From NCBI GenBank assembly GCA_048937405.1, contig JBHLNF010000005.1:205227-269226 (forward strand): DNA of 64,000 bases, written 5' to 3'. Shown in pieces: positions 2,407 through 15,215 of this stretch. A program made the position numbers and the translations under genes. Numbering within the stretch: position 1 is the stretch's first letter; every line of letters starts with the position of its first letter. This DNA is from Promethearchaeota archaeon. GTDB taxonomy: Archaea > Asgardarchaeota > Lokiarchaeia > Sigyniarchaeales > SOKP01. The notes below the pieces were generated by a model. That model searched no databases. It was not told the origin of the DNA and worked only from the letters and a program-made list of their open reading frames with translations.

Positions 2407-5400
2407 TTGCAAAATCCAGAGGAATTAGCTCAGGAAGCTTTAAAATATTTAGATATCGCACAAAAACTTGAAGAAGAAAAAGAATTTGAAAATGCAATTT
2501 CGCAATATCAACAAGCTGCTGATTTTCTTAAGCAAAGTGGATTTTTAATGCATAGAGTTCAGGAAATTTACGATAGAGTAAGTGAATTGAAAGATTTTCT
2601 ACAGAAAGAAAAGCTTTATCAACAAATAGAACATAAAACTCAAAGTGTACAATTGCAAGAACGAGGATTCGCTTTATTAGACAGAGCTAAAAAATTAGAA
2701 TTTGATGGTCTCTTTGAAGATGCTATTCAACAGTATTCATCTGCAATTCAATTACTAAGTCAAGCTGGTTGGTCTGAAACCCAACTATTTGAATTAAAAA
2801 CAAAAATTAACCGTCTTTCTCAAGAATTTGATAAAAGAAAAACAACCCTAGAACCACAAAAACAAATACCTGAATCACAGAGTCCCCCCATACAATTAAT
2901 TCAGGATGAAAAACCTCAAATTGTTGGAATGTTTGGCCAGAAAAGTAGTATAGAAAAGGAAGAAGTTATAAAACGTTTTAGAGAAAAAAGAAAATATGAA
3001 GAAAATATTCAAAATCAAGCGTTTGAACATATTGATGCGGCAAAATTATTTGAAAAAGATAAGAAATTTGATGATGCGATATTGAATTATGAGAAAGCCA
3101 TTGGTTTATTAACTTCCATTGGTTGGACCATTCAAATCCAAAATATCCAATCCATAATTGAAAAACTCAAAAAAGATAAAATAAATTTCGAATCTTTTCA
3201 AGTTAAACCTTCTACAACTTTAGAAACTACTGACATTGAAGAGGAGAAAGTTATATTAGAGAAAAGAGCAAAATTAGCCAAAGAGAAATTAAACAAATTT
3301 GAACTGAAGAAAAAACATGAGGAACAAGTACAAAATGAAGCCTTCAATTTGATAGATATTGGCAATAGATTTGAAAGAGAAAATAAGTTTGATGAAGCAA
3401 TTGAAAAATTTGAACAGGCAATTCAATATTTTAAATCTATAGAATGGGATTCTTATGTACATCCCATTAAAGGCTTTATTAATCAAATAAAAGAGAAGCA
3501 GGAGAGAGAGAAAAAAGCGGAAAAATTAATTGAAAAGAGACAAAAAGATTTAACCATTCTTCAAGATTCGATATATTTAAAGCAAAGAGAGCAAATTTTC
3601 AAATCAGCAAAAGAATTAGACAAGAAAAGAAGAGAATTTGAAGAAAAAACAAAAGTTGATGCAAAGAAAGAAAAAGATCTCTTTGGAATATTAGATAAGG
3701 CGGATAAAATTTTAAAAGAGAAAAATTTTGATGATGCTATAAATGAATATCAAAAAGCTTTTTCTATTTTAAGCGATTTGGGTTCTGGATGGGAAACTTA
3801 TACATCCATGATAAAAAATACTATTTCTAATGTTGAGAAATTAAAAAATTCTTACCTTACTAAAAAACTTGATGAGCAAAAGAAATTAGAAGAAAAAGAA
3901 CGTGAAGAAATTGAATTTCAAAAGCAAATTTTAACTCAATTAGATAAGGAGCGAAGCCAATTAAAAGAGAAAGAAATTATTATCAAAGATCATGAAGAGG
4001 AAATTAAGCATTTTGAACAACGTAAAAAAGTTGGATTTGAGTACTTAGATTCTGCCATGGATTTCCTGATACAAGGTAAATATGAAGAAGCTATATTAGC
4101 ATATCAAAATGCTGCCAATATTTTTGCCGAAATACAATGGACGGAGGAGATTCCTTTAATTGAAGTATCAATACAAGAAGTTGAAGAATTGCAGAGAACT
4201 CAAAATATCATCGAGCAGAGGAAACTAAAAGATGCTATTGAACGTCAAAAGAAAGAGGAAGAGTTTCAAAAACAAGTTAATAAATATTTAAGGCAAGAAA
4301 GGGAAAAATTAAAGAAAAAAGAAGTTGAATTAATGGAACGGGAAAAGATGGTAAAATATCAAGAAGAAAGGAGCATTGCAGGATTCAAATTACTAGATCA
4401 AGCTCAAGACAATTTAGAACAGGGAAATTTTGATGATGCCATTGAGATTCTAAAATATGCCATAAATTTTTTCGCTGATATTAATTGGCAGAATGAAATT
4501 AATCTAATACAGAATTCCATTATAGAAATTGAAAATAAAAAACGAGAAGCTGTAATTCAAGATCAAATTAAAATACAAGCAGAAATTGAACGAGAAAAGC
4601 AAGAAAGACTATTTCGGGATTATGTTACAGGGGAAATGAAAGCACAACAAGAGAAATTTGAAAAAAGAGAAATTATTTTAAGAGAAAGAGAAAAAGAAAT
4701 TGCTTTTCGGGAAAATAGAAAACAAGAAGCTTTTAACTTACTAGAGACAGCACAAGATCTTCTTTTAAATGGGAAGTTTGATGATGCTCTTGAAATTTAT
4801 TATAATATAGCGAATATCTTTGCACAAATTCAATGGAATGAAGAAATTTCAATAATTCAAGAAGCAATTCAGAATATAGAAGAAAGAAAGAGAGAGAATG
4901 AAATAAATAAACAAAAATTAATGCAAAAGTCAATAGAAAAAGAAACTGCTGATAAAGCTTTTATTGAGCAACTTAGGTATCAAAGAGGGAAGAAACGAGC
5001 TGAAATTTTGAAAGAGAAAGAACAAATTGAAAAACAAAAACAGCTTTCTGCTCAAAATTTGGTAAAACAACAAAAAGCATTTAAATTGATAGAAGATGGA
5101 GAAAATCTTATCGAAAAAGGAATTTTTGATGATGCAATAAGTAATTATAATGAAGTTATAGAAATTCTGAAAGAAATTGGTTGGGAAGAAGGATATCTCT
5201 CCCTATTACGTGACAATATACGATCTTTTAAAGCAAAGAAAAGGGATTATGAAAAAGAAAAACAAAATGAATTTGAAATTAAATTAAAGCAACAAAAAGA
5301 AGAAGAATTATTTCAAAAAAGAATAACTGAATATATGAAAAAAGAGCAGGAAAAAATTCAAGCTAAAAAAATTGAGATTCATCAAAAAGAAGATTTGTTA

Positions 5401-8400
5401 AAAAAAATGGAAAGCCGAAAATTAGAAGCATTTAAGGCAATGGAAGTTGCAGATAAGTTATTAAATGAAAGTGATTATGATGGAGCTATCGAGAATTATA
5501 TTCAAGCAGAGTTGATATTAAATGAAATTAATTTTCCAACTAATGTTATTAGAGATATAATTCAAACCATTCAAGAGAAAAAAAGAGAAGAAAACCTAAA
5601 CAAGATGAAAGAATTAGAACAAAAATATAGAAAACAACGTGAAGATGAACTCTTTCAAAAACAAATCTTGGAAAGAATAAAATTAGAAGAACAAGAAATG
5701 AGGGAAAAGCAAGAAAATCTATTGAAACAAGAGCAATTGAGGATCATAGAAGAACAAAAAAAACAAGAGGCATTCAATATATTAGATGACGCTAAAATAG
5801 GAATTAAAGAAATGAAGTTTGATGAAGCAATTGATTTATATAATAATGCCAAAAAGATATTTCTAGAAATTCAATGGGAAGATCAAGTTAATTTAATTGA
5901 TAAAGCTATTCTTACGATTGAGAATAAAAAAAGAGATACAGAAGTACAAAAACAAAAGAATCTAGAAAATAAAATTCAGCAAGAGCAACTAGAAGTTACT
6001 TTCCAAAGAAATCTTGTTAAGGAAATGGAAATTGAACGTAAAGAATTAAAGAAAAGACAAATAAGTCTTAGAGAAAGAGAAAAAGAACTCATTTATAGAG
6101 AAAAAAAGAAAGAAGATTCATTTAAACTATTAGATCAAGCACAGGATTATCTTTCACAAGGCAAATTTGATGAAGCAATAGAACTTTATGAAAATGTGGC
6201 AAATATATTTGCTCAAATTCAATGGACTGATGAAATTCCAATCATAAATAAAGCTATACAGGATATTGAAAATAAAAAGAGAGAAAGAGATTTAATAAAA
6301 CAAGAAAATTTTCAAGAGATAATAAAAAAGGAAAAATCTGAACAAGAGTTTATGGAAAAAATAAGGGATCTGAAGGAAAAGGAAAAATTAAAAGCTCTTG
6401 AAGAAAAAGATTCAATACAAAAGCGAGAATTGAGTATTTCTCAAAATTTAATCAAGCAAGAAGAAGCATTTAATTTGATAAATCAAGGATATGATTTACT
6501 TAATCAAAAGAATTATGATAAAGCATTAGAAAATTATCAAAATGCAATAACTATCCTTACTAAAATAGGATGGACCCATGATTATTTAAAACTTCTTAAA
6601 GATGCTGTAAAAGCCATTGAAATAAGAAAGATTGATGTTGAAAAAGAGAAAGTGCTTGAAAAAGAATTATTTATGAAACATCAACAAGAAGAAGAACAGT
6701 TCCAAAAGAAAATAACAGATAGTATGAAAATTGAACAGAAAAGATTACAAGCAAAAAAAATTGAAATTCAGAAAAAAGAACAATTAAAACACGTAATGGA
6801 GAGTCGTAAAGAGGAAACCTTTAAAACTATGGAATTGGCTGAAAATTATTTTAATCAAAAACAATATGATAAAGCAATTGAACAATACCGCCAAGCAGAG
6901 TTAATTTTGAATGAAGTTGGCTTTCCAACTAAAGTAATTAGAGAAATGATAAATAAAATTCAAAATAAAGAGAGAGAAGAATGGCTAAATAGTCAGAAAG
7001 ATCTAGAAAATAAACATCAGAAGGAGAAAGAAAATTATGAATTTCAATATAAAATCACAGAAAGCATTAGATTAGATGAAATTAAGTTAAAAGAAAGAGA
7101 AAATAAAATTCAGAGACAAAGAGAACTCCAAAAATACATGGAAAAAAGAAGGGAAGACGCCTTTAATCTTCTCGAAGAAGCAGAAGGATTCATGAAACAA
7201 TCTCAATATGATAAATCACTTGAATATTATCATGCCGCTGAATTAATATTAAATGAAATTGCTTTTCCAACAGATTCGATAAGGGATTTGATTTTAAAAG
7301 TTCAAAAGAAGAAACGAGAGTACCAACTGCAAAAACAGAAGGAATTAGAGCAAACTATTAAAAGGGAAAGAGAGGAATGGAATTATCAACAAAAGATAGT
7401 TAAGGAATTACAAAATGAAAAAGAACGATTGAAAGTAAAAGAAATAGAGGTATTAAAAAGAGAAGAATTGAAATCAAAATTAGAGAAAAGAAGAGAGCAA
7501 GCATTTAAGATATTAGAGCAAGGAGAGGGCTTCTTAAAAGAACAAAATTATGATAATGCGATAGTCTGTTATAGAAGGGCAATGCAATTTTTAAAAGAAC
7601 TCCAGTTTCCAACAGATTCTATAAATAATATGATAATTAAAGTTAATAAATTGAAAAAGCAAAAAGAAAAAGCAGAACGTTTAAAATTTGAAAAAGAACT
7701 TGATAGAATCGAAGAAGAAAAAGCCTTAGAAGTTTTAGTAGAAGAAAGAAAGAGACAAGAAAGGGAAAAAATGGAAGCGCAACAAATAGCACTAAAAGAA
7801 CGAGAGAAAATTATCCAAGAAAAAATGAGTGTAAGAGAATCGGCATATTCTCTTTTGGAAGAAGCTGGGACTTATTTAAAACGTCGAATTCCAAACTACA
7901 ATGAGGCTATTTCATTATATATTCAAGCACGGCATATTTTAGCGGATAATATAGGATGGGAACCTGAAATTAATAATTTGAATATATTAATTAAAGATTT
8001 ACAGCAAGAACAAGCTAATTTCCTCAATAAAAAGCAATTAGAGGAACAAGCTCGTTTACAACGTCAAAATGAATATGCCTTATTTCAAGAAGAAGTTAGA
8101 AAAAGAAGGTTAGAAAAAGAAAAATTAAAACGGGAACAAGAAAAACAATATCGCGAGTTACTATATAAAAGAAAACATATTGAACAAATTAAAAGTGAAG
8201 GATTAAGACTCATTGATGAAGGGAAAAAAAATGCAAGGTATCATGAATTCGAAAAAGCCTATGATAATTTTGAAGATGCAACTAAAAAGTTTAGAGAGAT
8301 TGATTGGAAAGAAGAGATAAAATATATTGAGACTGAAATTAAAAATACAAAAATATTAGAAGAAAAAGTAAGAAAAGAAGAAAAGAGAATTCAACTAATA

Positions 8401-8769
8401 CAGGAACAGTTAGAAAAACAAAGAATTTTGGAAGAAGAGCGTAAAAAGGCTGAGGAATTAAAACTGAGAGAAACCGTTATTGAAGTTGGTGAATTAACTG
8501 AGGAAGTATCAGACATAATCGAAGAAATTAAGCAACAACAAAAACTAGATGCTGAAATTCAAAAAAAGAAGATTAAATCTAAAGCCAAAGACTTTCGTAA
8601 GGAAATGAGTAATTTAATAAAATTTAAACAAGAACTTTCTGAAGAAATAGCAAAGAAAGAAGCAGAAAAAAGAAAATTTGAAGAAAAATTACAGATGTCA
8701 AAAGAAAGAGAAGAAATTGATAACCTTAAAAGAATGATTAAAGAAACTTCTAAAAAGAAAAAAAGGTAG
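2407..8769 (+). CDS. Giant 2120-aa repeat protein: 18 MIT/TPR-like helical units separated by E/K/Q/R-rich helices
   Basis: Recurring AFxLLDxA...FDEAIxxYxxAxxIFxxIxW motif about every 115 aa; TTG start preceded by GAGGT. Confidence 0.85.
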   Translation: MQNPEELAQEALKYLDIAQKLEEEKEFENAISQYQQAADFLKQSGFLMHRVQEIYDRVSELKDFLQKEKLYQQIEHKTQSVQLQERGFALLDRAKKLEFDGLFEDAIQQYSSAIQLLSQAGWSETQLFELKTKINRLSQEFDKRKTTLEPQKQIPESQSPPIQLIQDEKPQIVGMFGQKSSIEKEEVIKRFREKRKYEENIQNQAFEHIDAAKLFEKDKKFDDAILNYEKAIGLLTSIGWTIQIQNIQSIIEKLKKDKINFESFQVKPSTTLETTDIEEEKVILEKRAKLAKEKLNKFELKKKHEEQVQNEAFNLIDIGNRFERENKFDEAIEKFEQAIQYFKSIEWDSYVHPIKGFINQIKEKQEREKKAEKLIEKRQKDLTILQDSIYLKQREQIFKSAKELDKKRREFEEKTKVDAKKEKDLFGILDKADKILKEKNFDDAINEYQKAFSILSDLGSGWETYTSMIKNTISNVEKLKNSYLTKKLDEQKKLEEKEREEIEFQKQILTQLDKERSQLKEKEIIIKDHEEEIKHFEQRKKVGFEYLDSAMDFLIQGKYEEAILAYQNAANIFAEIQWTEEIPLIEVSIQEVEELQRTQNIIEQRKLKDAIERQKKEEEFQKQVNKYLRQEREKLKKKEVELMEREKMVKYQEERSIAGFKLLDQAQDNLEQGNFDDAIEILKYAINFFADINWQNEINLIQNSIIEIENKKREAVIQDQIKIQAEIEREKQERLFRDYVTGEMKAQQEKFEKREIILREREKEIAFRENRKQEAFNLLETAQDLLLNGKFDDALEIYYNIANIFAQIQWNEEISIIQEAIQNIEERKRENEINKQKLMQKSIEKETADKAFIEQLRYQRGKKRAEILKEKEQIEKQKQLSAQNLVKQQKAFKLIEDGENLIEKGIFDDAISNYNEVIEILKEIGWEEGYLSLLRDNIRSFKAKKRDYEKEKQNEFEIKLKQQKEEELFQKRITEYMKKEQEKIQAKKIEIHQKEDLLKKMESRKLEAFKAMEVADKLLNESDYDGAIENYIQAELILNEINFPTNVIRDIIQTIQEKKREENLNKMKELEQKYRKQREDELFQKQILERIKLEEQEMREKQENLLKQEQLRIIEEQKKQEAFNILDDAKIGIKEMKFDEAIDLYNNAKKIFLEIQWEDQVNLIDKAILTIENKKRDTEVQKQKNLENKIQQEQLEVTFQRNLVKEMEIERKELKKRQISLREREKELIYREKKKEDSFKLLDQAQDYLSQGKFDEAIELYENVANIFAQIQWTDEIPIINKAIQDIENKKRERDLIKQENFQEIIKKEKSEQEFMEKIRDLKEKEKLKALEEKDSIQKRELSISQNLIKQEEAFNLINQGYDLLNQKNYDKALENYQNAITILTKIGWTHDYLKLLKDAVKAIEIRKIDVEKEKVLEKELFMKHQQEEEQFQKKITDSMKIEQKRLQAKKIEIQKKEQLKHVMESRKEETFKTMELAENYFNQKQYDKAIEQYRQAELILNEVGFPTKVIREMINKIQNKEREEWLNSQKDLENKHQKEKENYEFQYKITESIRLDEIKLKERENKIQRQRELQKYMEKRREDAFNLLEEAEGFMKQSQYDKSLEYYHAAELILNEIAFPTDSIRDLILKVQKKKREYQLQKQKELEQTIKREREEWNYQQKIVKELQNEKERLKVKEIEVLKREELKSKLEKRREQAFKILEQGEGFLKEQNYDNAIVCYRRAMQFLKELQFPTDSINNMIIKVNKLKKQKEKAERLKFEKELDRIEEEKALEVLVEERKRQEREKMEAQQIALKEREKIIQEKMSVRESAYSLLEEAGTYLKRRIPNYNEAISLYIQARHILADNIGWEPEINNLNILIKDLQQEQANFLNKKQLEEQARLQRQNEYALFQEEVRKRRLEKEKLKREQEKQYRELLYKRKHIEQIKSEGLRLIDEGKKNARYHEFEKAYDNFEDATKKFREIDWKEEIKYIETEIKNTKILEEKVRKEEKRIQLIQEQLEKQRILEEERKKAEELKLRETVIEVGELTEEVSDIIEEIKQQQKLDAEIQKKKIKSKAKDFRKEMSNLIKFKQELSEEIAKKEAEKRKFEEKLQMSKEREEIDNLKRMIKETSKKKKR

Positions 8770-8916
8770 AAATTAATATTTATCTTTAAATTCTTTAAAT
8801 TTAAAAAGAAATTCTAACTATTTGTCTTAATTATTATTTTTTGAATTATTTGGAAACATATCATTAAAAGAGTTTAAATTAAGATCTTGAAATAATAATT
8901 ATAACAACAAAAAGAA

Positions 8917-10512
8917 GTGTTTTATAAAATGATTGAAAAACCAGAGGATATTGTTAAGTCACGTATGTATGCTAGACAACAGCTAATTGATGGATGGGAT
9001 CAAACTATAATTGATAATGGTGTTATTATGATAATTGGTGTTGGAGCTTTGGGTTGTGAAATTGCTAAAGATTTTGCTTTGATGGGAATTGGTAAATTGA
9101 TCCTTGTTGATCTTGATACTATTGAAACCTCTAATTTATCACGTCAAATGCTCTTTAGACCAGGAGATGAAGGACGAGCAAAAGCAGAAGTGGCAGCAGA
9201 AAGATTGAAGGAGATGAATCCTTATCTAAAGGTTGATTTCTACTTTGAAAAACTCCAAAAATTACCAATAGCGGTTTATGAAGAATCTGATGTAATAGTG
9301 GCAGCTTTAGATAATTTTAATGCTAGATTAGATCTAAATAAGATATGTTTAAGATTAAAAAAGCCAATGGTCGAAGCGGGGACAGTAGGATTTGAAGGAC
9401 ATTGCCAAATAGTAATTCCTGAGGGATCTGGATTGCAATACAAGAATAAGGAAAGCGAAATCGAGAATTTGGTTCAAACAAGGCTTTGGGAGATAACCGA
9501 AATGGAATATCCCGAATATTTCGAAGCACAGAAAAGAATTGAAGAACTTGAAGAAGAAATTGAAAATATTAGAGCTGAAAAAATTATTCCTTTAGAAGAA
9601 AAATTTAGAAAGGAAATTGAGATGGTTTTTGATTGGAAGTATGCTCCGGAATTATTAGACCAAACTCCTTGTTATAGATGTTTAGTACCAATACCCCCTG
9701 CTGATGATAAACTTGTGGCAGCATGTACTTTAAAAGGTCTACCACGCAATAGAAATCATTGTGTAATTAAAGCTGAAGTAGAGTTTGAAAAGAAATATGG
9801 TCATAAACCTGACCTAAATTTAAATGATGAAGTAATAAAATTAAAAGAATTAGCACAAATTGAATTAGAAAAATTAAGAGAACGGGTTCTTGATGAAAAC
9901 CTTCCACCAGAAACAAGAGATTCTTTATCTGAAGAGGAAATTAAGGAATGGAAAAAAAATATTGAAGAAACATTTGGACCAAATTATAAGTTTGAAGAAA
10001 TGGAGAATATACTTGGGAATAAAATTGCTGCAATACAAACTGTTAGCTCAGTTATAGCTAGTATTCAATCTCAAGAAGCATTAAAACTTCTTTTTAGAGT
10101 AAATGGGAGAAATATTGGTACTCCAATGGATCCTCCTTACATTAATTACAATGGAATTTATGGCCAATTCGATCATCTAAATATAATAAAAAGAGAGGAT
10201 TGTCTTGCTTGTGGAAAAATTGAAGGGGAAGAAAATGTACAAATTGTAGTTCCTTTTGATGCGGATGTCGGGTATGTTTTTAAAGCCTTGAAAATAACAG
10301 GATATGAATTAAATCCAGAATTATGGATGATTACTAACCCAATGACAAAAGAAATATACTGGAATCCATATATGCCTTCATTAAAAAATCCAAAGATTAA
10401 ATTAACTTCCTTAAAGGTTAAAAGCAACGACATAATTTCGATGACTCCTTTAGGTAAAGCATTAGTAGAATCAGAAATTAAAAAGTATAATGTCATAGTT
10501 GCATTTATGTAA
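8917..10512 (+). CDS. Ubiquitin-like activating enzyme E1 (ThiF/UBA; UBA3/UBA2-like); likely ATG at 8929
   Basis: GVGALG, DLDTIETSNLSRQ, LDNFNAR; Zn sites CYRC and CLAC; catalytic-Cys segment ACTLKGLPRNRNHC; about 90-aa C-terminal extension. Confidence 0.9.
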   Translation: MFYKMIEKPEDIVKSRMYARQQLIDGWDQTIIDNGVIMIIGVGALGCEIAKDFALMGIGKLILVDLDTIETSNLSRQMLFRPGDEGRAKAEVAAERLKEMNPYLKVDFYFEKLQKLPIAVYEESDVIVAALDNFNARLDLNKICLRLKKPMVEAGTVGFEGHCQIVIPEGSGLQYKNKESEIENLVQTRLWEITEMEYPEYFEAQKRIEELEEEIENIRAEKIIPLEEKFRKEIEMVFDWKYAPELLDQTPCYRCLVPIPPADDKLVAACTLKGLPRNRNHCVIKAEVEFEKKYGHKPDLNLNDEVIKLKELAQIELEKLRERVLDENLPPETRDSLSEEEIKEWKKNIEETFGPNYKFEEMENILGNKIAAIQTVSSVIASIQSQEALKLLFRVNGRNIGTPMDPPYINYNGIYGQFDHLNIIKREDCLACGKIEGEENVQIVVPFDADVGYVFKALKITGYELNPELWMITNPMTKEIYWNPYMPSLKNPKIKLTSLKVKSNDIISMTPLGKALVESEIKKYNVIVAFM

Positions 10513-10655
10513 GATTTTAACGATTAATTTACATCAAGAAATATTGAAATATCAGCCAATAAATTACTCATTATAAATTTTAATATTTCATAATATTATT
10601 AATATATAAAATAGAGGCGGTAATTTTTCCAAAAAATAAACCAAGAGATACACCA

Positions 10656-11177
10656 ATGAGCAATACGCATTTTAAATTTATGGTAAAGCATTTTAAAAAG
10701 CGTGATCAAAAATATCCTCCTCATCAAAAAATTGAGAAAACGAAAATAAAAGAAGGAAATATTGTATTAGATTATGGTTGTGGGCCTGGTAGTTATGCAA
10801 TTGCGGCAGCAAAAGTAGTTGGAGATAGAGGAAAAGTCTATGCCGCCGATATTCATCCCTTAGCACTTGAAGAGGTAAAAAAAAGAGCGGCTGAAAATAA
10901 GTTAAAAAATATTGAAACCATCTTAACTGATTGTGAAACTCAGTTAGAAGATAACTCAGTTGATGTTGCTTTATTATTAGATATTTACCATGATCTATCA
11001 AATCCAGAGTATATTTTAAAAGAATTACACCGTGTTTTAAAAAGAAATGGATGGTTATCAGTAGATGATCATCATTTTAAAGATGATGAAATAAAAGAGA
11101 AAATAATTGGTAAGGGATTATTTAAATTTGCAGAAAGGAAAGAGGAACTCTTTAATTTTACAAAAATCTTAGAATAG
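10656..11177 (+). CDS. Class I SAM-dependent methyltransferase
   Basis: VLDYGCGPG motif I; ELHRVLKRNG. Confidence 0.9.
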   Translation: MSNTHFKFMVKHFKKRDQKYPPHQKIEKTKIKEGNIVLDYGCGPGSYAIAAAKVVGDRGKVYAADIHPLALEEVKKRAAENKLKNIETILTDCETQLEDNSVDVALLLDIYHDLSNPEYILKELHRVLKRNGWLSVDDHHFKDDEIKEKIIGKGLFKFAERKEELFNFTKILE

Positions 11178-11202
11178 TGAAAAATTTGTTTTGTTTATAT
11201 TT

Positions 11203-11811
11203 TCATCTATTTTTAATTTTATTAACTAATTCTATTAAATCTCCTATAAAATGAGCTTCAATACCTGCATTTTTCCCTGTTAAAAGATCATTTTCTAAAT
11301 CTCCAAAAAAGATCATCTCGTCTTTTTTAACTTTAAAATATTTTTGAATCTTTATTAGTCCATCTGGAGCTGGTTTCCATCTCCTCACATCTTCCCTACC
11401 GATTATTAAATCTATTTTTTCCTGAATATTAACAATTTTTAAGGATGTTATTATTGTATTTCTTGTATTGAGAGATAAAACAGCAAATTTTGTATCTTTT
11501 TTAGCACCAAAAAATTCATAATTATTGATAAAAAATATTGTTTCTTCAATAGGTGTGAGATCTTGAATATTTTTAAGTTCAAATTGTCTGATAATATCAA
11601 AAAAAAAATTCAAAATCCCTTCATCTTTTTTTTCTACAACCATATTAAGACAGTTTGAAACTCTTTCAACGTTACAATTTTCTTTATATAGTTCATTGTA
11701 CTTTTTAATTAAAATATCTTTCAAGACAGTCCAATTAGCTGTAAGTTTAACTATGGTACCATCTAAATCAAAAATTATAATTCTTTTTCCTTCTAGTGCT
11801 AAAGTTGTCAT
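11203..11811 (-). CDS. HAD-superfamily hydrolase (phosphoglycolate phosphatase-like)
   Basis: FDLDGT, KPAPDG, GDLEND motifs. Confidence 0.9.
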   Translation of the reverse strand: MTTLALEGKRIIIFDLDGTIVKLTANWTVLKDILIKKYNELYKENCNVERVSNCLNMVVEKKDEGILNFFFDIIRQFELKNIQDLTPIEETIFFINNYEFFGAKKDTKFAVLSLNTRNTIITSLKIVNIQEKIDLIIGREDVRRWKPAPDGLIKIQKYFKVKKDEMIFFGDLENDLLTGKNAGIEAHFIGDLIELVNKIKNR

Positions 11812-11906
11812 TTATAATAACTGAAACTGTTTTAATTGCACTTGTTATTTATCAAACTATATTTAGAATAAATAAAATTAAGAGAAAAAATTAAGTTTTT
11901 TGGACC

Positions 11907-12425
11907 TTAATCTATTGCATATTTCTTAGTCCAGGCACTTGCTTTTGCCTCAAACTTCTTTTGAGCACGAAAATATTGTTCACCTGCTTCATGATTTAAT
12001 GGATCTCCTGGATTAAAAAAGGGAGGTTCTACATGCATCATGCCTTTTAAAGCTTCTATTATATTTGTGAGAGTTTTACTTGGAGTCCATCCAGAAGCTC
12101 CAGTGCTAGCATCAACCTTTCCTACCAAATCGGGATTGATTAAATCTAAACAAATATTTAATTTTCCAGGTGGAATTGAAGAATCAATATTAGGATGCCA
12201 CATTAAAGTTACTGCATAAGCATAAGGAGGTGCAAATGGATAATTCTCTGGGAATTTGATTTCGAAAATAAACTTACCATCCGCATAGGGAGTTCCTTTC
12301 TTTCCGATGATAGTAAGTCTTAAATGATCGATACTTCTTCCCCATGGTTCTAAAATAACATTAGCATCATTCTTGTATGCTTCGATTGCTTCAGTATAAT
12401 CTGTTTCTTCTCTGATAATTATCAC
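11907..12425 (-). CDS. Ubiquitin-conjugating enzyme E2 (UBC fold)
   Basis: GTPYADGKF, FPENYPFAPP, WHPNI...NICLDL, WTP, PLNHEA, WTKKYA. Confidence 0.93.
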   Translation of the reverse strand: MIIIREETDYTEAIEAYKNDANVILEPWGRSIDHLRLTIIGKKGTPYADGKFIFEIKFPENYPFAPPYAYAVTLMWHPNIDSSIPPGKLNICLDLINPDLVGKVDASTGASGWTPSKTLTNIIEALKGMMHVEPPFFNPGDPLNHEAGEQYFRAQKKFEAKASAWTKKYAID

Positions 12426-12718
12426 CTATCATTTGAATTTGCTTTTAAATTGTAATTGATATATTACTTTAATTTTATAAAAATATTGTTCAATTGATAA
12501 AAAATTTTTCACAACAAAACTAAATTATATTTTTAAGGTTGAAAATTTTTAGTTTAATATCTTAATAAAGTAAATATATTTGAAGTTTTCTTAATCAAAA
12601 AATAAAAAAAATTGCATACAAAAAAATGTAGAAATCATATTTTTGTGTTATTCAATTTTATCAGTAAAAAACAAAAAAAATATATTAATTCTATAATTAT
12701 TTATTTTTAACTTAACAA

Positions 12719-12898
12719 CCCCTCTTAACTCAGACTGGTAGAGTACTCGGCTGTAGATATTATCGCGTAATAAAGCTTATTGCTAATGAAATTACGTCAG
12801 CTGAGACCGAGTGTATTGGAAAAAACCATACCGGTAAAGGTCGCCGGATCGAGGTGAATCCCTCAAAGAAATTCACGATACGCCGGCAGAGGGGACCA
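12719..12898 (+). tRNA. tRNA-Tyr(GUA) with three introns (12757-12805, 12812-12837, about 12853-12880), CCA encoded
   Basis: Acceptor CCCCTCT/AGAGGGG-A-CCA (C1:G72, A73); D stem ACTC/GAGT; anticodon stem CTCGG/CCGAG with CT-GTA-G; T stem GCCGG/CCGGC. Confidence 0.88.
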
Positions 12899-13271
12899 TT
12901 AATCTCATTTTTTTACAAGAATTTTAAAATAACACTTCACAATTATTTACAAAAATATTCTTAATCTCTCTATAGATCATTTTTAACAATTTTACTGAGT
13001 AATTTTCTTAATCTAAACCATTTAAATACATCTTTTTTAAAAGAATTATTATATTCAATGTTTTCCCAAATGCCTTTATAAGTGAGAAAGAGATATTTTT
13101 AAAATAACGCAAATTGAAAAAAAACTATAGATTCCTCTTATAGTATTATCTAATAATAGGGGAAAAAGAAAAGAAGTATAGTATTTCTGAAGTGCATAAT
13201 TTCTTTACATCATTAGACAGATTTCCAGGTTTTAAATTAAAATTAATTTAATTCTAATTTTTTAATTTTTT

Positions 13272-15215
13272 CTAATATTTGTTGTTATTTTTTTTGTAAG
13301 TATGAAATTTGAAAATTAGATAGAAGAGGGATAAAGAATATGAGAGTAAAAAGAATATTATTTCATATCCATTAATTCTTTTTCGTGGTTCTAATAATAT
13401 CTCTAAGTAGGTGTTAAAGTTTGAATCTAACTGAACTAGTACTTCATCCCCATATTCCAATCTTACCTTAGTTGGTTTATTACTTAATGAAATATCTAGC
13501 GTTGTTGTTCCATTTATCCATATCCATTCATTATAAGTTATTCCATTAGAATTATATACTATTAGTTGAACTTGCTGAGAGTAATGATAATCATTTAAGT
13601 GTTCATTGAGATCATTAATTGTGAGTTCTAGGATTTGAAGGTTTGCATCATAATGACATTCAAGGAAATTATATTTTGGAAGAAAAAGATTATCAAACCA
13701 AGGAAAGAAAAACCAATCCAATGAGGAACCATACACACTTTCCATAGCTTGTTGTAAATCGGATAAGAGAGCAATTTTATATATCTTTTGAGTAAAAAAA
13801 AGTCTCAATCCCGTTAAAAATAATGTAGTGCCAAGAGTTCTACGTAGTTTCTCAAATATTAAAGGTGCTTTAGTATATGCAGTAAAATAATAATTATCTT
13901 CATTGACCACCTCGTATACAGAAACATTTATTTTTGACGATATTCCTTCACGAACATAATATGTTCTTACGCTATCGATATAAGGTGTTTCTTGAAAATA
14001 TTCCCAATTATTATACTTTATTTCCCCATAATAACTTGTTGACCAGCAAACTAACCCTTCATCTAAGAAACCCCAGTCAACTTCATCATTTCCAACTAAA
14101 TTATACCACCACTGATGCCCTGTTTCATGAACAATAATAGCTTCTAACCAAGTTAGAGGATATGACCATTCATCTATAGATTCTGTTATATAAACCTGAC
14201 ATGGGTATTCCATTCCTCCATAATATGTATATTCTTCCACAACATTAAAAGTTGGATATGGATATTCACCAAAGGTTTCATTAAAAAGTGTTAATGCTTG
14301 TTTTGCAAAATTTATTGCATTATTTTCCCATATTGTTTTAGATTTTGGTAAGTAATAGCTAGTTATATTCACACCATTTATTACTTCAGATTCCTGATAG
14401 AAATATCTTGAGGTTGAAAAACTTACTTCTCTAACTGGATGAATTGGATCGAAGTGATATGTTGTAATTGATCCATAGTCTATTTTATCGACTATTTCCC
14501 CAGTTGCCGCAACAATCATTCCTATTGGTACAGTAATGTAAAAATCATAATAAGCCATATCATAATAGAAAGGATCACCAACCCCAAGATAAGGATCTGT
14601 ATTCCAACCATCATAGCTATCATACACACAAGGCATAGGGTAGAATCCTGCACATTTATAGATTCGAGATTTATTAATATCTCCACCATGAGAATTAGAG
14701 CGGTCAATCCCCCCATCAGGTAACGTAGCATTGAAGTATATCTCAAACTGAACTCGTTGAAATGGTTCCAATATATTTTCCAAATAAATCCACATTATTT
14801 GGTTTGCTGGATATTCATCATAAATTAAAGGTGATTTAGAAACATCAGATTTATTTACACTAATTATATCAACTAACCCTGGTCTTGAATCGTAGTTCAT
14901 GCCGGATAAATAAATATGAAATGGAACTTTAGTAAAATTCACTGGATCGTTATTATAGAAATCAACTTTTAAAATCCCTGTTAATTTCGAACTACCTTCA
15001 TCTAATTGAACAGATAAATTATAGTAAGAATATTCTCCACCGTTTGATGATAATATAGGGGTTTTATTGTATTTTAACTTGGGATTACCTGGACGTGTAA
15101 TAGTTTCATTTGAATTTTTTTTACCCTGAACAATATTTAGGAATCCACCAAAACACAGGCAAAAGAGGATTATGAAACAATAACGTTGAGTGTTCGATTT
15201 GATTATTATCATCAT
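13272..15215 (-). CDS. Secreted, membrane-anchored M1-family zinc aminopeptidase with C-terminal sorting signal
   Basis: Signal-like N-terminus; GGMEY; HETGH-x18-E; C-terminal INGY + transmembrane helix + basic tail. Confidence 0.88.
   Translation of the reverse strand: MMIIIKSNTQRYCFIILFCLCFGGFLNIVQGKKNSNETITRPGNPKLKYNKTPILSSNGGEYSYYNLSVQLDEGSSKLTGILKVDFYNNDPVNFTKVPFHIYLSGMNYDSRPGLVDIISVNKSDVSKSPLIYDEYPANQIMWIYLENILEPFQRVQFEIYFNATLPDGGIDRSNSHGGDINKSRIYKCAGFYPMPCVYDSYDGWNTDPYLGVGDPFYYDMAYYDFYITVPIGMIVAATGEIVDKIDYGSITTYHFDPIHPVREVSFSTSRYFYQESEVINGVNITSYYLPKSKTIWENNAINFAKQALTLFNETFGEYPYPTFNVVEEYTYYGGMEYPCQVYITESIDEWSYPLTWLEAIIVHETGHQWWYNLVGNDEVDWGFLDEGLVCWSTSYYGEIKYNNWEYFQETPYIDSVRTYYVREGISSKINVSVYEVVNEDNYYFTAYTKAPLIFEKLRRTLGTTLFLTGLRLFFTQKIYKIALLSDLQQAMESVYGSSLDWFFFPWFDNLFLPKYNFLECHYDANLQILELTINDLNEHLNDYHYSQQVQLIVYNSNGITYNEWIWINGTTTLDISLSNKPTKVRLEYGDEVLVQLDSNFNTYLEILLEPRKRINGYEIIFFLLSYSLSLFYLIFKFHTYKKNNNKY

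Follow-up and report, generated by a model that had tools for sequence, protein, structure and literature searches.

A candidate second ubiquitin-type conjugation system in an order of Lokiarchaeia, and the giant MIT-like repeat protein encoded beside its E1 gene

Gene content of the locus

The window analysed here is a 64,000-nucleotide stretch of a Promethearchaeota genome (genome G000, contig C18, positions 205227-269226) which carries, close together, genes for a giant repeat protein and for the activating (E1) and conjugating (E2) enzymes of a ubiquitin-like protein (Ubl) pathway. The giant gene (2407..8769, + strand) is an open reading frame (ORF) of 2120 amino acids (aa) matching Pfam MIT and TPR families. 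It is followed on the same strand, after a spacer of 147 bp (8770..8916), by the E1 gene (8917..10512, +), a 531-aa ORF that opens with GTG and matches Pfam ThiF. The E2 gene (11907..12425, -) encodes a 172-aa UBC-fold protein matching Pfam UQ_con and is convergent with the E1 gene, the ends of the two genes being 1394 bp apart. This layout, with the giant co-oriented 147 bp 5' of the E1 and the E2 converging on it about 1.4 kb further on, is the one given in the initial annotation, and the ORF coordinates agree with it. Two genes that had not been named there, for a methyltransferase and a HAD-family hydrolase, lie between the E1 and the E2.

The initial annotation also recognised no Ubl, RING or JAB gene. 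Whole-genome family searches agree for the window itself, in which ubiquitin (PF00240), JAB (PF01398) and zf-RING_2 (PF13639) have no match, and inspection of the ORFs between 8700 and 13400 revealed no small Ubl-like frame. A linked Ub-E1-E2-RING-JAB cluster is thus not found at the window; all three families map instead to a cluster on contig C7.

Activating and conjugating enzymes

Alignments with orthologues place the probable start of the E1 at the ATG at 8929, giving a protein of 527 aa in place of the 531-aa GTG version. The protein contains one ThiF domain (Pfam ThiF, 5.1e-57). Besides the adenylation domain it comprises a catalytic-Cys region that bears helical inserts and, at the C-terminus, a ubiquitin-fold domain (UFD). 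Sequence matches in the PDB were to Uba1, UBA6, UBA7, UBA3 and SAE2, and the E1 segment CTLKGLP aligned to the catalytic-Cys loop of yeast Uba1, PLCTLRSFP. Residues G37/G39/G42, R72/Q73, D128, C248/C251, C266 and C425/C428 are invariant in an alignment of 20 sequences (A2), in all of which the nucleotide-binding motif and the Arg finger are intact. The structural model has a mean pLDDT of 75.7, with low confidence for the catalytic-Cys segment, and residues 430-527 are modelled as a strand-strand-helix-strand beta-grasp at a pLDDT of about 87. Its best full-length Foldseek match is UBA3 (2nvu_B, 2.8e-25, UFD included), followed by UBA6, SAE2 and UBA1. The E1 had been described as UBA3-like, and the full-length structural match, the conserved Cys266, the two CxxC pairs and the beta-grasp all bear this out.

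The E1 therefore has the ThiF-type adenylation domain, the catalytic Cys within an insert behind the crossover loop and the C-terminal UFD (the predicted docking site for the E2) of a canonical E1, but with its single ThiF domain it does not have the inactive adenylation partner or fusion that canonical E1s have. No NAE1/SAE1-like partner was found in the genome, where a query with the N-terminal ThiF domain of the E1s of family f4 returned the window E1 as its best match. Family f4 is one of four (f1-f4) into which the 100 other genomes of the order sampled here fall, and its E1 orthologues are proteins of 732-980 aa with two ThiF domains (L038:8989-11367 (-), L039:1613-4555 (-), L040 and L041), the N-terminal one being most similar to the window E1. 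This suggests that the f4 E1 arose by tandem duplication and fusion towards a UBA1-like single chain. Because the second ThiF domain of these fused orthologues is most similar to the same E1, the single-domain window E1 likely works as a homodimer.

The E1 orthologues of all four genomes of genus g2 (G006:C52, G009:C178, G034:C712 and G047:C108) are reported with one to three in-frame TAA/TAG codons within the match. These could reflect a small insertion, an alignment artefact or some other cause.

The E2 (Pfam UQ_con, 4e-26) keeps the HPN motif and the catalytic Cys (ICLD) when aligned to yeast Ubc1, as a UBC-fold enzyme should, and H77, P78, N79 and C92 are invariant among 18 sequences, with 68-97% identity across the order. 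The initial reading of this gene as an E2 stands, and from its motifs the enzyme looks active. Relative to yeast Ubc1 it carries a 13-residue loop insertion, the weakly acidic NPDLVGKVDASTGASG, between the catalytic Cys segment and the conserved Trp. The E2 of the canonical operon on C7 has the same loop, six residues shorter.

A paralogous E1/E2 pair and its distribution

The genome encodes a canonical ubiquitin operon at G000:C7:333646-337137 (-), which comprises a RING gene (C7:337006-337137, -, recognised by its family match), a 112-aa Ubl ending in STAG, a 423-aa E1, a 175-aa E2 and a JAB protein. With this operon present the window pair is a second set. It shares 32% (E1) and 41% (E2) identity with the C7 enzymes and is a second conjugation pair, paralogous to that of the operon. 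Beyond the operon there are two further paralogues of the STAG-type Ubl (C19:87828-88166 and C7:373482-373895). Contig C7 also encodes (372639-373424) a 261-aa protein that begins with a hydrophobic stretch and ends in a Ubl domain.

Window-type enzymes are widespread in the order. The E1 was found in 94 of the 100 other genomes and in all four families, as a full-length orthologue of 51-89% identity or, in f4, in its double-ThiF form. The E2 (68-97% identity) occurs in about 88 of the 100, covering f1 to f3 and one f4 genome. In a phylum-wide sample of 151 genomes, the window-type E1 and E2, like the candidate Ubl and the MIT-array unit described below, were found in this order alone; for the Ubl and the MIT-array unit the counts cover 27 genomes of the order and 123 others. 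The 123 genomes outside the order have canonical types only, with E2s at 40-47% identity to the window E2 and E1s that align with the window E1 over the adenylation domain alone.

A candidate modifier

A 75-aa ubiquitin-family protein is encoded outside the window at G000:C16:102356-102583 (+; locus L001:1480-1707). It ends in GG followed by FL, so that C-terminal trimming would be needed, and it is distinct from the three Ubls of C7 and C19, which are 112-137 aa long and end in STAG. The C16 Ubl is 72-99% identical across the order, and its type was found in 23 of the 27 order genomes and in none of the 123 others of the phylum.

In the window genome the C16 Ubl gene adjoins neither the E1 nor the E2, and its links to them come from relatives. 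G004:C61 carries a gene of this type at a distance of 1.4 kb from its f4 E1, and in G013 an ORF 330 bp upstream of the E1 ends in 24 residues that are 96% identical to residues 50-73 of the Ubl. On G020:C630 (L053), a contig only 3.6 kb long, three genes follow one another on the + strand: a C16-type Ubl (366-617), a 379-aa protein bearing a C-terminal Ubl domain (807-1946) and an E2 (1934-2452) which is a second window-type copy, 68% identical. Because of its conservation throughout the order, its restriction to the order and this neighbourhood with E1 and E2 in relatives, the C16 Ubl is most likely the modifier handled by the window enzymes.

The repeat protein

A motif scan and an alignment of the repeats (A1) resolve the giant into 18 three-helix MIT/TPR-like units with a period of about 116 aa, and no domain other than these modules was detected in it. 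The Pfam MIT match (4.1e-28) scores 97.7 bits against a cut-off of 30, which is a sum over many units, the best single stretches spanning only profile positions 3-36. Several TPR families also match, and a profile of the unit gives weak matches to MIT chains (E 0.003-0.07) and stronger ones to consensus TPR.

Residues 1110-1430 were modelled with AlphaFold from an alignment of orthologous and paralogous segments (A4), with a mean pLDDT of 89.8. In the model each unit is an isolated antiparallel three-helix bundle whose third helix extends for about 93 residues and becomes helix 1 of the next unit. Charged single helices about 50 residues long link the modules, and neighbouring units do not stack, giving a beads-on-a-rod layout. 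This layout does not match a TPR solenoid of stacked 34-residue repeats, as what recurs, every ~116 residues and unstacked, is a TPR-like hairpin with a third helix. Individual modules superpose on the MIT domains of NRBF2, Vps4, VPS4A/B, LIP5, katanin p60 and calpain-7 with Z scores of 9.4-10.2 and root-mean-square deviations of 2-3 Å over 65-73 residues; Z scores under about 13 are not decisive for helical bundles according to the notes of the tool, and TPR three-helix pieces and designed bundles tie with the MIT domains. Because the rod is extended, Foldseek returned no match at E <= 0.001 for the segment model as a whole, and only local matches to single modules are usable.

Of the original description of this protein as an MIT/TPR-repeat giant, the repeats, the match above the Pfam MIT threshold and the fold have held up. 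The label "MIT-like" is justified by the Pfam threshold together with the predicted fold. As TPR pieces and designed bundles score equally, MIM binding is only a possibility. The window shows no linkage to ESCRT genes: Vps4 and ESCRT-III genes are on C20 and at C7:823 kb, distant from it, and the two Snf7-family genes of the genome are both far away.

Surface positions occupied by F, A, W and Y are conserved across the 18 units and across orthologues (A1, A4). In family f1 the giant orthologues are only 33-63% identical, against 84-97% for the E2, and range from 843 aa (L024:10133-12664) to open frames of 2927 aa in G012, G037 and G043. Within this one family, then, length differs more than threefold from genus to genus, which suggests rapid gain and loss of repeat units. 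Locus L025 has the gene broken into two ORFs (1242 and 365 aa). One paralogue, of 1700 aa, is present in the window genome (G000:C7:622174-627276, -). Genomes of f2 hold proteins of 2270-2550 aa that match this C7 paralogue best, so the order has at least two old MIT-array lineages.

Most likely, then, the giant is a lineage-specific rod of 18 MIT-like bundles held some 50 residues apart. Its likeliest role is that of a spacer or multivalent platform to which short helical or peptide motifs, for example the MIM tails of ESCRT-III, would bind.

Conservation of gene order

About 19.5 kb around the E1 orthologue were compared at 16 f1 loci from seven genera. The giant and the E1 are neighbours on one strand in all 16, but the flanking genes, encoding RACo, two small ORFs and a histone-deacetylase-type (HDAC-type) protein, are equally collinear. 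In six of the 16 loci, belonging to genera g3, g4 and g8, an opposite-strand Peptidase_S8 gene splits the giant from the E1 and converges on the giant (L026:7835-9385, -; likewise in L027, L028, L029, L032 and L033). Family f3 is represented by one locus, where the gene for the MIT protein is followed by a Peptidase_S8 gene (L034:5904-7265, -) and then by an inverted E1, the MIT-repeat orthologue being at most 2.5 kb from the E1. As the order of MIT protein and then S8 is found both in f1 genera and in f3, genus g1 seems to have gained its direct adjacency secondarily, when the S8 gene was lost. The window genome has no S8 orthologue; the best match, 28% identical, lies elsewhere.

The spacer between giant and E1 contains a T6 run (8837-8842) and then the BRE/TATA-like box AAAAGAGTTTAAATT at about 8866-8880, some 50 nt before the ATG at 8929. 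The box (AAAGAGTTTAAATT) is kept in four g1 loci and one g7 locus, the remainder of the spacer having diverged (A6). This conservation points to a promoter of the E1's own, and the giant is probably on a transcript of its own.

Linkage breaks down in f2, where nine loci have neither a giant nor an E2 near the E1. Three complete f2 genomes have more than 1 Mb between E1 and E2, and in them an MIT protein of 990-1165 aa, which matches the window giant best and is its likely orthologue, is encoded 28-50 kb away from the E1. The HDAC-type gene was taken as a control here instead of RACo, for which no f2 orthologue was found at 1e-30. The HDAC-type orthologue occupies the same region, at a distance of 16-64 kb from the E1 and some 10 kb from the MIT protein. 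Judged by gene order, the f2 pattern is that of a decaying ancestral block and not of selection for a module.

The three genes had been expected to stay together across relatives if they worked together. What stood of this is the adjacency of giant and E1 throughout f1; what did not is their persistence in f2, where they are dispersed, and unrelated flanks are just as well conserved. Given the f1 flanks, the S8 interruption and the f2 dispersal, no linkage beyond background synteny was found for giant, E1 and E2 as a module. No comparative evidence ties the giant functionally to the E1 and E2, and it looks like an inherited neighbour.

Interpretation of the locus

We consider it probable, though well short of certain, that the window E1 and E2 belong to a scattered second ubiquitin-type system specific to this Lokiarchaeial order, and that the giant is their neighbour by descent. 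In such a system the E1 would adenylate the C-terminal Gly of the Ubl and then load the Ubl onto Cys266. It would pass the Ubl to an E2 docked on the C-terminal UFD, and the E2 would transfer it to targets through some E3.

Several observations weigh against this interpretation. The assignment of the C16 Ubl draws on gene neighbourhood in three genomes and on shared distribution. Giant and E1 are adjacent and co-oriented in every f1 locus, down to 64% E1 identity. The box before the E1 lies in very AT-rich DNA (27% GC), where such motifs are common, and is missing in two g1 loci with shorter spacers. The MIT-array unit, moreover, shares the order-restricted distribution of the E1, E2 and Ubl, being found in 27 of the 27 order genomes and in none of the 123 others.

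This last point keeps alive the proposal of the initial annotation that the giant rod is a dedicated scaffold, substrate or non-RING E3-like partner and that the three genes form one functional locus. The constant neighbourhood in f1, the MIT-repeat orthologue within 2.5 kb of the E1 in f3 and the fact that the E1/E2 pair has no assigned E3 would also fit a partner role. We nevertheless find that role very unlikely, since genes unrelated to the pathway are as syntenic as the giant, a subtilase gene on the opposite strand comes between giant and E1 in six f1 loci and adjoins the MIT protein in f3, and a promoter-like box precedes the E1. In f2, furthermore, the genes are dispersed with both E1 and E2 still retained, and the giant evolves far faster than the E2. 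A complex prediction for giant residues 1110-1430 (A4) with the E2 (A5) gave a score of 0.00, the mark to be reached being 0.32, and counts neither for nor against binding. Still less credit can be given to the idea that the giant is a new type of non-RING platform of the second system, for instance a multivalent rod gathering E2~Ub or ubiquitylated or MIM-bearing clients; were it true, Ubl, E1, E2 and rod would have arisen together in this Lokiarchaeial order.

A different modifier has also to be considered. The window enzymes might act on the STAG-type Ubls of C7 and C19, as a back-up or differently regulated route, and not on the C16 Ubl. The genome has three STAG-type Ubl genes for one linked canonical E1/E2 pair, and its C16 Ubl gene is beside neither window enzyme. 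It is, however, the C16 type and not the STAG type that stands beside the f4 E1 and the G020 E2 copy, and the C16 Ubl resembles the window-type E2 in its restriction to the order and its very high conservation, which makes a STAG-type substrate quite unlikely. As to the giant, a purely structural rod (a spacer, a tether or a cytoskeleton-like element), built of TPR-like stabilising bundles with no MIT-type ligand binding, would account for the preference of the unit profile for consensus TPR over MIT and for the tied fold scores of MIT domains, TPR fragments and designed bundles. It would also suit the absence of a genomic ESCRT link and a unit number that varies between genera (843-2927 aa), as expected of a length-tunable spacer. 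The Pfam MIT score above the curated cut-off, the surface positions conserved across the 18 units and orthologues, and the isolated MIT-like bundles in place of a stacked TPR solenoid speak against it, and on balance we think it unlikely, though it deserves to be kept in mind.

Neighbouring genes

The HAD-family hydrolase gene (11203..11811, -; 202 aa, Pfam HAD_2 2.8e-21) shares the strand of the E2 gene and follows it after 95 bp. Its best NCBIfam match is the pyrophosphatase PpaX (6.3e-18, far below the cut-off). Across families it is the gene most persistently beside this E1, being convergent with it in f1, near it in f3 and directly after it on the same strand in genus g14 of f2. Orthologues near the E1 orthologue include those at L042:11013-11621 (+) and L047:3726-4340 (+). 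The hydrolase may belong to the second system, possibly as a pyrophosphatase; that it removes the pyrophosphate released by adenylation is speculation.

The class I S-adenosylmethionine-dependent methyltransferase gene (10656..11177, +; 173 aa, Pfam Methyltransf_31 2.6e-21) has an orthologue at this position only in the g1 loci L018 and L020. It is probably a local insertion outside the system. Beyond the E2, about 850 bp (12425-13272) are devoid of genes; neither ARAGORN nor Rfam (E up to 0.1) gave a match in this gap, although tRNAs with several introns may escape both. In genus g14 of f2 the E1 is flanked downstream by the HAD gene and directly upstream by a gene for a Ras/Roc-type small GTPase (L042:8781-9365, +).

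Discussion

Asgard ubiquitin systems serve to reconstruct the origin of eukaryotic ubiquitin signalling. The order studied here holds the known operon and, beside it, a second set consisting of a near-invariant ubiquitin, a UBA3-like E1 with a UFD and an E2. With the two-ThiF, UBA1-like E1 of one of its families, it offers a natural series for following the pre-eukaryotic diversification of E1 architecture and of E1-E2-Ubl specificity. No description of a second Lokiarchaeial E1/E2 pair or of MIT arrays was found in the literature searched. The novelty is real, if modest: in addition to the operon this order has a ubiquitin system of its own, with genes at scattered sites and a candidate modifier, and it has an unusual family of MIT-array rods. 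The rod of 18 MIT-like modules is an unusual architecture in itself, and there is currently no evidence for its membership of the ubiquitin system.

Among known enzymes the window E1 is closest in build to UBA3, the catalytic subunit of the NEDD8 E1 (2NVU, 1TT5, 3GZN), and to SAE2/UBA2, with which it has in common a single active adenylation domain and a C-terminal UFD. The catalytic Cys comes right after the first CxxC, as in UBA3 and SAE2, and a second CxxC is also shared. Identity to UBA3 is 18-19% over the structural alignment. The window E1 differs in having two long charged helical inserts (residues ~195-242 and 299-349 in the model), which UBA3 does not have, and, unlike UBA3 and SAE2, it has no recognised gene for an NAE1/SAE1-like partner.

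The natural archaeal comparison is the Ub-E1-E2-RING-JAB operon of the Caldiarchaeum subterraneum type (PMC5654768), together with the ubiquitin regions of Asgard genomes (PMC9192718). Eukaryote-like E1 and E2 enzymes, thioester chemistry (predicted for the window pair) and a small ubiquitin ending in Gly-Gly are features of both. Unlike the operon genes, those of the window set are scattered: the Ubl is encoded on C16, and neither a RING nor a JAB gene is close by. Its E1 is about 100 aa longer and has a UFD, and its E2 carries the 13-residue loop insertion.

E2s of the Cdc34/Ube2G type have an insertion next to the active site, and the 13-residue insertion of the window E2 is at the same position, between the Cys segment and the Trp. 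A shorter version of the loop is present in the canonical C7 E2, so the loop would seem to be a feature of the Asgard lineage and not proof of Cdc34 orthology.

The modules of the giant, finally, share with Vps4, MITD1, NRBF2, LIP5/Vta1 and calpain-7 a three-helix unit of ~65-70 residues. Those MIT proteins are enzymes or adaptors that bear a single MIT domain or a pair of them, whereas the giant has 18 such units in a row and nothing else.

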